Shown one piece after another: positions 1,227-54,707 of a stretch of DNA of 64,000 bases. Numbering within the stretch: position 1 is the stretch's first letter; the number at the start of each line of letters is the position of its first letter. The notes under the pieces were generated by a model that had not been told where the DNA came from, made no database searches, and was given only the letters and a program-made list of their open reading frames with translations. This DNA comes from Escherichia coli (GTDB lineage Bacteria; Pseudomonadota; Gammaproteobacteria; Enterobacterales; Enterobacteriaceae), in NCBI RefSeq assembly GCF_003334785.1, contig NZ_QOWV01000002.1. The stretch is one strand, 5' to 3'. Both the position numbers and the translations under genes were made by a program.

Positions 1227-3470
1227 ATGAAACTGAATGCAACTTATATAAAAATACGTGATAAATGGTGGGGGCTTCCGCTGTTCCTGCCTTCTTTAAT
1301 CTTGCCCATTTTCGCCCACATTAATACTTTCGCGCATATTTCTTCCGGTGAGGTTTTTCTCTTTTATCTGCCTCTGGCACTGATGATCAGCATGATGATG
1401 TTTTTCAGCTGGGCGGCATTGCCAGGGATCGCCTTAGGGATTTTTGTCCGCAAATATGCAGAGCTGGGTTTTTACGAAACGCTATCATTAACGGCTAATT
1501 TTATTATCATTATCATTCTCTGTTGGGGCGGTTACAGGGTCTTTACTCCCCGGCGTAACAACGTTTCACATGGTGATACCCGTTTAATTTCCCAGCGTAT
1601 ATTCTGGCAGATTGTGTTTCCTGCAACGCTGTTTCTGATACTTTTCCAGTTTGCTGCATTTGTAGGATTACTGGCGAGCAGAGAAAATCTGGTCGGTGTC
1701 ATGCCTTTTAACCTCGGGACTTTAATCAATTATCAGGCCTTACTGGTGGGTAATCTGATCGGTGTCCCGCTGTGCTACTTCATCATTCGGGTAGTGCGAA
1801 ATCCATTTTATTTACGTAGCTATTATTCGCAATTAAAACAGCAGGTTGATGCCAAAGTCACCAAAAAAGAGTCCGCGCTCTGGCTACTGGCATTAGGTGC
1901 TTTATTGTTGCTGTTATGCATGCCGTTAAATGAAAAAAGCACAATTTTTAGCACCAATTATACCTTGTCATTATTGCTGCCCCTGATGATGTGGGGAGCG
2001 ATGCGCTATGGTTATAAGCTGATTTCGCTGCTCTGGGCGGTCGTGTTGATGATCAGCATCCACAGCTATCAAAATTACATTCCCATTTATCTTGGCTATA
2101 CCACGCAGCTGACCATAACCTCCTCCAGTTATCTGGTATTCTCTTTTATTGTCAATTATATGGCTGTACTGGCAACCCGTCAGAGAGCGGTAGTCAGACG
2201 CATTCAGCGGCTTGCGTATGTGGACCCGGTGGTTCATCTGCCAAATGTTCGCGCCCTGAATCGCGCGTTGCGTGATGCCCCCTGGTCTGCGCTTTGTTAT
2301 TTACGCATCCCTGGCATGGAAATGCTGGTTAAGAACTATGGCATCATGCTGCGGATTCAATACAAGCAAAAACTTTCTCACTGGCTGTCACCCTTGCTGG
2401 AACCGGGTGAAGATGTTTATCAGCTTTCGGGTAACGATCTCGCGCTGCGACTGAATACAGAATCGCACCAGGAGCGCATTACCGCACTGGATAGCCATCT
2501 CAAGCAATTTCGTTTCTTTTGGGATGGCATGCCGATGCAACCGCAGATTGGCGTCAGTTACTGCTATGTGCGCTCGCCAGTGAATCATATCTACCTGCTG
2601 CTGGGAGAGCTAAATACGGTCGCCGAACTTTCCATCGTGACCAACGCCCCGGAAAATATGCAGCGTCGCGGGGCAATGTATTTGCAACGCGAATTGAAAG
2701 ATAAAGTCGCGATGATGAATCGACTACAGCAGGCGCTGGAACACAACCATTTTTTCCTGATGGCCCAGCCGATTACCGGTATGCGTGGTGATGTTTACCA
2801 TGAAATTCTTCTGCGCATGAAAGGTGAGAATGATGAACTGATCAGCCCCGATAGCTTCTTGCCGGTCGCGCACGAATTTGGTTTATCGTCGAGTATCGAC
2901 ATGTGGGTCATTGAGCATACGCTGCAATTTATGGCTGAAAACAGAGCGAAGATGCCCGCTCACCGTTTTGCTATTAATCTGTCTCCAACCTCGGTATGTC
3001 AGGCTCGTTTTCCTGTTGAAGTCAGTCAGTTGCTGGCTAAATATCAGATTGAAGCGTGGCAACTTATTTTTGAAGTCACCGAAAGTAATGCTCTGACCAA
3101 TGTTAAGCAGGCGCAAATCACCTTGCAGCATCTTCAGGAATTAGGCTGCCAGATTGCGATTGATGATTTCGGCACCGGCTACGCCAGCTATGCGCGGCTT
3201 AAAAATGTGAATGCCGATCTGCTTAAAATTGACGGCAGTTTTATCCGCAATATTGTGTCAAATAGTCTGGATTATCAGATAGTGGCATCGATTTGCCACC
3301 TGGCGCGAATGAAGAAAATGCTGGTAGTGGCAGAGTACGTTGAAAACGAAGAGATCCGCGAGGCGGTGCTCTCTTTGGGGATCGATTATATGCAGGGTTA
3401 TCTTATTGGTAAGCCGCAGCCGTTAATTGATACGCTGAATGAAATCGAACCCATTCGCGAAAGTGCCTGA
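1227..3470 (+). CDS. pdeF: Cyclic-di-GMP phosphodiesterase PdeF (YfgF): N-terminal multi-pass membrane (MASE1-like) region, degenerate GGDEF, C-terminal EAL domain
   Basis: 747 aa ORF; hydrophobic N-terminal third; EAL-domain motifs (EVTES, DDFGTGYAS, KIDGSFI) in the C-terminal part. Confidence 0.9.
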   Translation: MKLNATYIKIRDKWWGLPLFLPSLILPIFAHINTFAHISSGEVFLFYLPLALMISMMMFFSWAALPGIALGIFVRKYAELGFYETLSLTANFIIIIILCWGGYRVFTPRRNNVSHGDTRLISQRIFWQIVFPATLFLILFQFAAFVGLLASRENLVGVMPFNLGTLINYQALLVGNLIGVPLCYFIIRVVRNPFYLRSYYSQLKQQVDAKVTKKESALWLLALGALLLLLCMPLNEKSTIFSTNYTLSLLLPLMMWGAMRYGYKLISLLWAVVLMISIHSYQNYIPIYLGYTTQLTITSSSYLVFSFIVNYMAVLATRQRAVVRRIQRLAYVDPVVHLPNVRALNRALRDAPWSALCYLRIPGMEMLVKNYGIMLRIQYKQKLSHWLSPLLEPGEDVYQLSGNDLALRLNTESHQERITALDSHLKQFRFFWDGMPMQPQIGVSYCYVRSPVNHIYLLLGELNTVAELSIVTNAPENMQRRGAMYLQRELKDKVAMMNRLQQALEHNHFFLMAQPITGMRGDVYHEILLRMKGENDELISPDSFLPVAHEFGLSSSIDMWVIEHTLQFMAENRAKMPAHRFAINLSPTSVCQARFPVEVSQLLAKYQIEAWQLIFEVTESNALTNVKQAQITLQHLQELGCQIAIDDFGTGYASYARLKNVNADLLKIDGSFIRNIVSNSLDYQIVASICHLARMKKMLVVAEYVENEEIREAVLSLGIDYMQGYLIGKPQPLIDTLNEIEPIRESA

Positions 3471-3508: not shown

Positions 3509-7121
<3,613 letters not shown>

Positions 7122-51787: not shown

Positions 51788-54067
51788 ATGGATGACCAGT
51801 TAAAACAAAGTGCACTTGATTTCCATGAATTTCCAGTTCCAGGGAAAATCCAGGTTTCTCCAACCAAGCCTCTGGCAACACAGCGCGATCTGGCGCTGGC
51901 CTACTCACCAGGCGTTGCCGCACCTTGTCTTGAAATCGAAAAAGACCCGTTAAAAGCCTACAAATATACCGCCCGCGGTAACCTGGTGGCGGTGATCTCT
52001 AACGGTACGGCGGTGCTGGGGTTAGGCAACATTGGCGCGCTGGCAGGCAAACCGGTGATGGAAGGCAAGGGCGTTCTGTTTAAGAAATTCGCCGGGATTG
52101 ATGTATTTGACATTGAAGTTGACGAACTCGACCCGGACAAATTTATTGAAGTTGTCGCCGCGCTCGAACCAACCTTCGGCGGCATCAACCTCGAAGACAT
52201 TAAAGCGCCAGAATGTTTCTATATTGAACAGAAACTGCGCGAGCGGATGAATATTCCGGTATTCCACGACGATCAGCACGGCACGGCAATTATCAGCACT
52301 GCCGCCATCCTCAACGGCTTGCGCGTGGTGGAGAAAAACATCTCCGACGTGCGGATGGTGGTTTCCGGCGCGGGTGCCGCAGCAATCGCCTGTATGAACC
52401 TGCTGGTAGCGCTGGGTCTGCAAAAACATAACATCGTGGTTTGCGATTCAAAAGGCGTTATCTATCAGGGCCGTGAGCCAAACATGGCGGAAACCAAAGC
52501 CGCATATGCGGTGGTGGATGACGGCAAACGTACCCTCGATGATGTGATTGAAGGCGCGGATATTTTCCTGGGCTGTTCCGGCCCGAAAGTGCTGACCCAG
52601 GAAATGGTGAAGAAAATGGCTCGTGCGCCAATGATCCTGGCGCTGGCGAACCCGGAACCGGAAATTCTGCCGCCGCTGGCGAAAGAAGTGCGTCCGGATG
52701 CCATCATTTGCACCGGTCGTTCTGACTATCCGAACCAGGTGAACAACGTCCTGTGCTTCCCGTTCATCTTCCGTGGCGCGCTGGACGTTGGCGCAACCGC
52801 CATCAACGAAGAGATGAAACTGGCGGCGGTACGTGCGATTGCAGAACTCGCCCATGCGGAACAGAGCGAAGTGGTGGCTTCAGCGTATGGCGATCAGGAT
52901 CTGAGCTTTGGTCCGGAATACATCATTCCAAAACCGTTTGATCCGCGCTTGATCGTTAAGATCGCTCCTGCGGTCGCTAAAGCCGCGATGGAGTCGGGCG
53001 TGGCGACTCGTCCGATTGCTGATTTCGACGTCTACATCGACAAGCTGACTGAGTTCGTTTACAAAACCAACCTGTTTATGAAGCCGATTTTCTCCCAGGC
53101 TCGCAAAGCGCCGAAGCGCGTTGTTCTGCCGGAAGGGGAAGAGGCGCGCGTTCTGCATGCCACTCAGGAACTGGTAACGCTGGGACTGGCGAAACCGATC
53201 CTTATCGGTCGTCCGAACGTGATCGAAATGCGCATTCAGAAACTGGGCTTGCAGATCAAAGCGGGCGTTGATTTTGAGATCGTCAATAACGAATCCGATC
53301 CGCGCTTTAAAGAGTACTGGACCGAATACTTCCAGATCATGAAGCGTCGCGGCGTCACTCAGGAACAGGCGCAGCGGGCGCTGATCAGTAACCCGACAGT
53401 GATCGGCGCGATCATGGTTCAGCGTGGGGAAGCCGATGCAATGATTTGCGGTACGGTGGGTGATTATCATGAACATTTTAGCGTGGTGAAAAATGTCTTT
53501 GGTTATCGCGATGGCGTTCACACCGCAGGTGCCATGAACGCGCTGCTGCTGCCGAGTGGTAACACCTTTATTGCCGATACATATGTTAATGATGAACCGG
53601 ATGCAGAAGAGCTGGCGGAGATCACCTTGATGGCGGCAGAAACTGTCCGTCGTTTTGGTATTGAGCCGCGCGTTGCTTTGTTGTCGCACTCCAACTTTGG
53701 TTCTTCTGACTGCCCGTCGTCGAGCAAAATGCGTCAGGCGCTGGAACTGGTCAGGGAACGTGCACCAGAACTGATGATTGATGGTGAAATGCACGGCGAT
53801 GCAGCGCTGGTGGAAGCGATTCGCAACGACCGTATGCCGGACAGCTCTTTGAAAGGTTCCGCCAATATTCTGGTGATGCCGAACATGGAAGCTGCCCGCA
53901 TTAGTTACAACTTACTGCGTGTTTCCAGCTCGGAAGGTGTGACTGTCGGCCCGGTGCTGATGGGTGTGGCGAAACCGGTTCACGTGTTAACGCCGATCGC
54001 ATCGGTGCGTCGTATCGTCAACATGGTGGCGCTGGCCGTGGTAGAAGCGCAAACCCAACCGCTGTAA
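51788..54067 (+). CDS. maeB: NADP-dependent malic enzyme (malic enzyme domain fused to a C-terminal phosphotransacetylase-like domain)
   Basis: 759 aa; N-terminal malic enzyme/NAD(P)-binding region and PTA-like C-terminal half. Confidence 0.93.
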
Positions 54068-54085
54068 TTTTTTTTAACTCTCACG

Positions 54086-54109
54086 CTTACCCTGAATATT
54101 CAGGGTAAG
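54086..54109. other. Perfect 24-bp palindrome CTTACCCTGAATATTCAGGGTAAG downstream of maeB (terminator hairpin or operator-like site)
   Basis: Exact reverse-complement symmetry about the central AATATT; lies 19 bp after the maeB stop and ~250 bp upstream of eutS. Confidence 0.5.
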
Positions 54110-54359
54110 CAGTTTAGCTGCAATATATTAGTAAAGCTTATTACTGAGTTTGCGAATAATAAAAAAAAGCAGTCTATATAATATCTCGATATTATTTTAT
54201 TTATATTCATGCGTTGCATATGAAAGTTTATGCACCACAGCGAATATCTCTCCATTCTTAGTGATCTACCTCACCTTTTAAACGCGCTTGCCGAATTTTG
54301 TTATTTACTCTGACGAAAAATTGTCACGATACACGAAAGTTTTTCACAGGCGGCGACTC

Positions 54360-54695
54360 ATGGATAAAGAACGCATCATTCAGGAATTTGTGCCCGGCAA
54401 ACAGGTCACACTGGCGCATCTCATCGCGCATCCCGGTGAGGAACTGGCGAAGAAAATCGGCGTTCCGGATGCGGGCGCAATTGGCATTATGACGCTAACT
54501 CCCGGCGAAACGGCGATGATCGCCGGTGATTTAGCGCTGAAAGCCGCTGATGTGCATATCGGTTTTCTCGACCGATTCAGCGGTGCATTGGTGATTTATG
54601 GCTCGGTGGGCGCAGTAGAAGAAGCGTTATCACAAACCGTCAGCGGTTTAGGTCGCTTATTAAATTATACGCTTTGTGAAATGACCAAAAGTTAA
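54360..54695 (+). CDS. eutS: Ethanolamine microcompartment shell protein EutS (permuted BMC domain)
   Basis: 111 aa from [32 protein letters not shown]; the ORF track is extended by 24 codons. Confidence 0.9.
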
Positions 54696-54707
54696 TACGA
54701 GGCATTC

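Follow-up and report, generated by a model that had tools for sequence, protein, structure and literature searches.

A perfect palindrome between maeB and eutS of Escherichia coli is most likely a 3′ stem-loop of the maeB transcript

The window considered in this work, a stretch of 64,000 nucleotides, comes from E. coli K-12: MG1655-type genomes match its segment 53900-54500 at 100% identity, and in them RefSeq annotates maeB and eutS on the flanks. The gene identities (maeB, eut) proposed in an earlier sequence-only reading of this DNA are borne out by that annotation. The maeB coding sequence (b2463, NADP-dependent malic enzyme) occupies 51788..54067 on the plus strand, according to the open reading frame list and to the RefSeq annotation of the identical MG1655, and terminates with a TAA codon at 54065-54067. 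On the same strand, the RefSeq annotation of the MG1655-identical sequence places eutS at 54360..54695, with its ATG at 54360. The corresponding coordinates in NC_000913.3, obtained as 2630165 - x for window position x, are 2576098..2578377 for maeB and 2575470..2575805 for eutS, both on the minus strand.

Several segments succeed one another between these two genes. The maeB stop codon is followed on the plus strand by a T-rich linker of 17 nt devoid of G (TTTTTTTTAACTCTCAC, 0% G, 54068..54084), by a perfect palindrome able to form an RNA hairpin (54085..54110) and by a tail resembling a degenerate U-tract (AGUUUAGCUG, 54111..54120). Then comes a variable AT-rich spacer (54121..54244, to which no strand is assigned), which is specific to Escherichia and absent in Citrobacter and in the Klebsiella oxytoca group. 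The eutS promoter and 5′ UTR block, on the plus strand, was delimited by alignments and covers 54245..54359, identity starting from ~54245 in strain 1428 and from ~54258 across genera. The AT-rich DNA described earlier as reaching up to eutS is confirmed, GC content being 33.7% for 54111-54359 vs 52.7% for the whole window, and this richness in AT resides mostly in 54111-54244 (27.6% GC). As for coding capacity, the palindrome contains the end of a minus-strand ATG open reading frame of 51 aa (54100..54255). Other E. coli strains have truncations or frameshifts in this frame and other Escherichia lack it, so that it is very likely spurious. A plus-strand open reading frame of 43 aa was also considered as a small protein, from its translation only.

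The sequence-only reading had noticed a perfect palindrome of 24 bp near the maeB stop codon. The 24-mer CTTACCCTGAATATTCAGGGTAAG is indeed present at 54086-54109, its first base being the 19th past the stop, and it matches once in the window and never in 100 shuffled versions. Its length was underestimated: the true perfect palindrome is the 26-bp GCTTACCCTGAATATTCAGGGTAAGC (54085-54110), which starts 17 nt past the stop codon. This size exceeds chance expectation. The next-longest perfect palindromes of the 64-kb window are 14 bp long, and in 200 dinucleotide-preserving shuffles the longest palindrome reached 24 bp once and 26 bp never. On the plus strand, the corresponding RNA folds into a hairpin with an 11-bp stem (46% GC) and an AUAU loop, of -18.0 kcal/mol. 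In a 91-nt context, folding energy is -24.1 kcal/mol (z = -4.0), with none of 200 shuffles folding as well. A stable stem-loop on the coding strand shortly past the stop codon, as expected of intrinsic terminators, is therefore present.

Of 5426 complete E. coli genomes, 5410 have the element, at a single locus and without annotation. The two matching places obtained per genome presumably correspond to both strands of the palindrome, and no second near-full copy exists either in the window (allowing up to 3 mismatches) or in the 5426 genomes. Like REP/BIME elements, it is an extragenic palindrome lying just past a stop codon; unlike them, it occupies one locus per E. coli genome, by which membership in this type of repeat family is ruled out. 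An Rfam search at permissive E-value returned chance-level matches only, none of them near gathering scores.

A minority of strains carry the K-12 form, approximately 1195 of 5411 records (about 22% of complete genomes) being identical to it over 54076-54120. At position 54111, K-12 carries an A and most E. coli strains a G. With G at this position, the palindrome extends to 28 bp and the RNA stem to 12 bp, spanning 54084-54111, with an energy of -20.4 kcal/mol. All other Escherichia examined have G at 54111 too; with the A of K-12, the basal C-G pair is lost and the GUUU tail context becomes shorter.

To look beyond E. coli, we turned to representative genomes and compared 80 of their loci coding for the C-terminus of MaeB; E. 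albertii, E. fergusonii and Shigella are not among these loci. Three non-coli Escherichia lineages retain the stem at the same 17-nt offset. Their loops are GAUUAUU, AGUAAUU or the K-12 form, their elements measure 27-29 nt, and their right arm carries a G where K-12 has an A. Across 10 distinct Escherichia sequences, pairing is kept in 97.5% of stem cells and seven stem pairs are invariant. One-sided variation affects four pairs, in five variant types, of which four produce G·U; the fifth leaves the loop-proximal pair of strain MSB1_4I unpaired. The basal stem pair is broken in K-12 and ST540. Double-sided pair changes were not found in these 10 sequences, in which divergence is low and a shuffle control is uninformative. 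Since divergence within Escherichia is too small, structural support comes from the G·U changes and from the replacement observed across genera (see below), not from covariation.

The same substitutions have a different meaning at the DNA level, as a G·U pair fits an RNA helix and breaks DNA dyad symmetry. Five of the 10 sequences lose the DNA palindrome through such one-sided changes (T·G). In addition, two sequences have a base inserted at the centre, and odd-length centres shift the half-sites relative to one another. In two of the three non-coli lineages, conservation is higher in the hairpin than in the spacer next to it, with identities of 86% vs 68% and 96% vs 46%; the third shows 83% vs 87%.

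The sequence downstream of the stem is more variable. In K-12, the tail AGUUUAGCUG contains 3 U in 8 nt, where at least five would be expected of a U-tract, and a consensus scan of 53700-54700 returned neither a terminator nor a sigma-70 promoter. Relatives carry GUUUUAUUG or AUUUUUAUAU instead, and the tails of E. whittamii (ATTTTTATAT) and of Escherichia sp. MOD1-EC7003 (GTTTTATTGC) pass the consensus terminator scan. The earlier statement that no U-tract follows on either strand is therefore correct for K-12 but not for these U-rich relatives. Because at least 5 U in 8 nt occur in both E. whittamii and MOD1-EC7003, the ancestral element probably had a U-tract of this quality. Using a classical terminator discriminant with ViennaRNA energies, we obtained about -33 for K-12, -18 for the major E. 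coli allele and -3.5 for E. whittamii, vs +30 to +55 for the maeB terminators of Citrobacter, Klebsiella and Salmonella. With this formula, every Escherichia version falls below the threshold, and the K-12 hairpin is therefore not convincing as a stand-alone terminator.

These other genera display a different element at the same place. At ~23 loci from Citrobacter, the Klebsiella oxytoca group, Pseudocitrobacter and Salmonella, maeB is followed by an unrelated GC-rich hairpin, GGCGCGGG-loop-CCCGCGCC (in Salmonella, GGCGCAGG), and then by T5-6. In nearly all of them this hairpin starts 17-20 nt past the maeB stop codon. It is preceded in Citrobacter and Klebsiella by a linker, TTTCACTTTAATTAATTC, with which the E. 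coli linker aligns loosely. Where eutS is adjacent in those genera, the gap between the two genes amounts to ~158-161 nt and the terminator U-tract abuts the eutS regulatory block. The Escherichia element resembles these canonical intrinsic terminators of maeB by its stable single hairpin and by an offset that agrees within a few nt, and the same hairpin followed by a U-rich tail exists in E. whittamii and MOD1-EC7003. It differs from them by the three U of the K-12 tail and by a longer (11-12 bp) and less GC-rich (46%) stem. The K-12 hairpin has no sequence similarity to the Citrobacter-type one, and is called neither by the scan nor by the discriminant.

In Intestinirhabdus alba, the maeB-proximal hairpin GGCCCUUAUCCC-GGCA-GGGGUAAGGGCC (3265-3292 of the locus) has a 12-bp stem and lacks a U-tract, and shares with the E. 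coli stem a 7-bp core, CUUAYCC/GGGUAAG; no eutS was present within 2.5 kb. The two hairpins are possibly homologous, in which case a U-less maeB hairpin would predate the genus Escherichia. Recurring-type palindromes, CCCTCTCCC...GGGAGAGGG or GTCGGGTGGCGC..., lie in one or more copies within the 110 nt that follow maeB in many genomes of Enterobacter, Leclercia, Pluralibacter and their relatives, and Kosakonia also figures among the genomes carrying such palindromes there. In these loci, eutS was not found in the 2.5 kb fetched.

Rearrangements of the locus indicate to which gene the hairpin belongs. In E. coli strains 1428 and MSB1_4I, similarity to K-12 past maeB stops 12 bp after the hairpin. 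In strain 1428, the AT-rich spacer is replaced by a 2-kb island carrying two glycosyltransferase genes on the opposite strand (717-2703 of the locus). The eut operon is intact beyond the island, and identity with K-12 is recovered ~115 bp upstream of eutS. MSB1_4I has the same divergence point, with a glycosyltransferase gene downstream. In strain PRO_A-1482-6W-A, an IS1 is inserted in the 3′ arm of the hairpin with a 9-bp target duplication, CAGGGTAAG (1531-2300 of the locus). In the island and IS1 cases alike, the hairpin remains by maeB and the promoter block by eutS.

Other observations concern the same junction. In strain 1428, the stop codon of the convergent island gene is 3 nt from the hairpin, and the stem lies there between two convergent genes. 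Strain 300081 likewise has an IS1 within the maeB-eutS intergenic region. In Salmonella enterica subsp. diarizonae, ~2.1 kb separate the maeB terminator from eutS, and this insert contains a minus-strand open reading frame of 413 aa (3803-5044) with a CxxxCxxC motif, radical-SAM-like by eye only. In subsp. arizonae, eutS is absent from the 2.5 kb fetched past maeB. Taken with the E. coli island and the IS1, the Salmonella insert makes the maeB-eutS junction look like a place where insertions recur.

The control region of eutS is distinct from the palindrome. An alignment of eutS upstream sequences from 13 taxa revealed conservation across genera from K-12 position ~54258 to the ATG, the conserved block reading TTAGTGATCTACCTCACCTTTTAAA...TTGCCGAATTTTGTTATTTACTC... 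Within it, AGTGATCTACCTCACC (54260-54275) and TTGCCGAATTTTGTTATTTACTC (54288-54310) hardly vary between Escherichia, Klebsiella, Yokenella and Salmonella. We take AGTGATCTACCTCACC to be a CRP-like box from its resemblance to TGTGA-N6-TCACA, and the two elements are presumably the CRP and the EutR/promoter core of eutS. The palindrome lies far upstream: some 216 bp separate its centre from the inferred eutS start, and the distance to the conserved block is ~150 bp or more. In Salmonella, the eutS RNA probe begins at ACAAAAAATTGCCACG, equivalent to K-12 position 54313 (PMC10433801), and EutR is described as acting on, or binding, the promoter just before eutS (PMC10433801, PMC4643982).

Published transcriptome data locate a Rho-dependent step in this region. 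In Supplementary file 2 of Adams et al. 2021 (eLife, PMC7815308), one Rho termination region has the minus-strand coordinate 2575860. This corresponds to window position 54305, ~195 nt past the hairpin and within the eutS promoter block. There, the 3′-end reads upstream/downstream are 161/21 without bicyclomycin and 195/140 with the drug (Adams et al. 2021, PMC7815308). The Rho score of 5.5 (p = 1.5e-13; same source) is derived from 800-nt windows and is coarse, and transcripts initiated in the spacer could contribute to it beside maeB read-through. A rut-like stretch on the plus strand in which C exceeds G, defined by GC skew, extends over 54210..54350, with a skew minimum of -0.375 at 54230-54309, just before the Rho coordinate. 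This C > G stretch begins 100 nt and ends 240 nt downstream of the hairpin; the first 100 nt are AT-rich and not rut-like (C 10%, G 12%).

Concerning the 3′ end itself, the curated Term-seq ends in the complete files of Adams et al. 2021 (LB at OD 0.4 and 2.0; M63) include none in 2575xxx-2578xxx; therefore no dominant end at the hairpin was called in those conditions. The supplements of TERMITe 2025 contain no maeB entry. In the published reports searched on the maeB 3′ end, 3′ UTR or Rho, nothing specific was found except a sigma-S holoenzyme SELEX peak between eutS and maeB (PMC5493296), and the palindrome core string had no match in the paper texts searched.

Altogether, the palindrome most likely acts as RNA and not as DNA, in the form of a 3′ stem-loop of the maeB transcript. 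Of the two roles offered by the sequence-only reading, the terminator stem is favoured by the offset from the stop codon, by the G·U changes, by the U-tails of sister species and by the terminators that other genera have at this place. The operator of eutS is disfavoured, given that the dyad is not conserved, lies far from the eutS block and stays with maeB. The opinion that sequence could not decide between them was too pessimistic, as comparative sequence does discriminate. The reservation expressed there about the lacking U-tract is justified and has weight, since published data point to a need for Rho downstream in K-12. More precisely, we consider it probable that the hairpin is a leaky maeB terminator and a protective 3′ stem-loop, with Rho as a back-up.

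In this model of a leaky hairpin backed up by Rho, the Escherichia hairpin occupies the place of the canonical Rho-independent terminator of other enterobacteria. Its tail is still U-rich in some Escherichia species and has decayed to UUU in K-12, where the basal pair is lost as well (A54111). The K-12 hairpin would halt only part of transcription. Polymerases that have passed it would meet Rho before they reach eutS, and would be terminated in the untranslated spacer, in which C is in excess over G. The stem, being stable, may then block 3′-to-5′ exonucleases, and would in this way set and stabilise the 3′ end of the maeB mRNA. Hairpin and Rho jointly would keep transcription of maeB from running into the EutR-controlled eut operon. 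Ethanolamine together with B12 induces Eut proteins without inducing MaeB alongside them (PMC11334477), which is consistent with transcriptional insulation.

These properties echo those of a known class of transcripts. Dar and Sorek 2018 (NAR, PMC6061677) described Rho-terminated E. coli mRNAs ending at stable U-less stem-loops that shield the transcripts against PNPase and RNase II. The maeB element resembles this class (PMC6061677) by its stable U-poor stem-loop, with bicyclomycin-sensitive read-through and a C > G stretch downstream. What defines the class is a steady-state 3′ end mapped to the base of the stem, together with rut sites immediately downstream, and the K-12 element departs from this definition in that the Term-seq table of Adams et al. 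has no 3′ end called there and that C > G begins only ~100 nt past the stem.

Alternatively, the hairpin could be a self-sufficient intrinsic terminator in spite of its weak U-tract, the downstream Rho signal then arising from other transcripts, for instance from spurious starts in the spacer, where RNA polymerase binding has been reported. We regard this as unlikely, yet as the most serious competitor. It accounts well for an offset matching that of the canonical terminators of other genera, for the strength of the stem (-18 to -20.4 kcal/mol) and for the U-rich tail of sister species, and most E. coli strains do combine a 12-bp stem with a GUUU(U) tail. Against it stand the 3 U in the first 8 nt of the K-12 tail and the failed consensus scan, the discriminant of about -33 in K-12 vs +30 to +55 for canonical terminators, and a hairpin devoid of a called Term-seq 3′ end. 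Moreover, the bicyclomycin-sensitive step maps a short way before the inferred eutS start, as would fit transcripts that come from further upstream.

The hairpin might also be a functionless leftover, such as the scar of the rearrangement through which the ancestral terminator was replaced and the AT-rich spacer acquired, and its conservation within E. coli would then reflect recent common descent only. Near-universality in one species indeed says little about selection, and the junction has been recurrently hit by insertions (the island, IS1 and the 2.1-kb Salmonella insert). This view is improbable in light of the persistence of the stem in at least 4 Escherichia lineages, next to a spacer that goes down to 46-68% identity, of stem changes that keep RNA pairing and of a related stem core after maeB in Intestinirhabdus.

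Least probable of all is a DNA operator for a dimeric transcription factor regulating eutS, or maeB from downstream: although a perfect dyad of 26-28 bp is unusual in the window and sits in the maeB-eutS intergenic region, it is lost in other Escherichia through one-sided substitutions and a centre spacing off by 1 nt, the sequence is absent from other genera having the same maeB-eutS order and the conserved eutS promoter, its distance from the inferred eutS start and from the conserved block is that given above, it stays with maeB when the 2-kb island or IS1 displaces eutS, near-full copies of it are found nowhere else, be it in the window or in E. coli genomes, and it appears in no paper text searched. 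The operators of dimeric repressors and activators, as in lac and gal, share with this element perfect dyad symmetry only; it is unlike them in its unconserved dyad, in having no promoter nearby, in being single copy and in following the upstream gene. The half-site of the palindrome is CTTACCCTGAAT, and we know of no E. coli motif with a TGAA-N2-TTCA spacing. A relation to the TGAA half-site of the Cra/LacI family was rejected, the half-site spacing being 2 bp shorter and the centre unconserved.

Returning to the leaky hairpin with Rho as a back-up, Escherichia has apparently swapped a canonical terminator for a U-poor hairpin needing Rho. A bolder extension, which we hold to be quite improbable, is that the trade of a strong intrinsic terminator for a leaky hairpin plus Rho has made the insulation of eut conditional, so that read-through primes low expression of eut and EutR. 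If true, read-through under high maeB transcription or weak Rho activity, as in acetate or gluconeogenic growth or under stress, would prime eut and EutR, and maeB, considered as an ‘ancillary’ EUT1 gene, would be functionally coupled to ethanolamine use.

The element is most likely an ordinary terminator-type stem-loop of an mRNA 3′ end, of a well-known kind, and it matters little beyond annotation. It also provides an example of a perfect DNA palindrome past a stop codon that could be told from a protein site by comparative sequence alone. The tell-tale signs were that changes were limited to G·U, that the loop varied, that the element was linked to the gene before it and that other genera had a non-homologous terminator in this position. 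A conspicuous unannotated palindrome of the best-studied bacterium is hereby assigned to the 3′ end of maeB, and its candidacy as an operator of the eut operon is removed.
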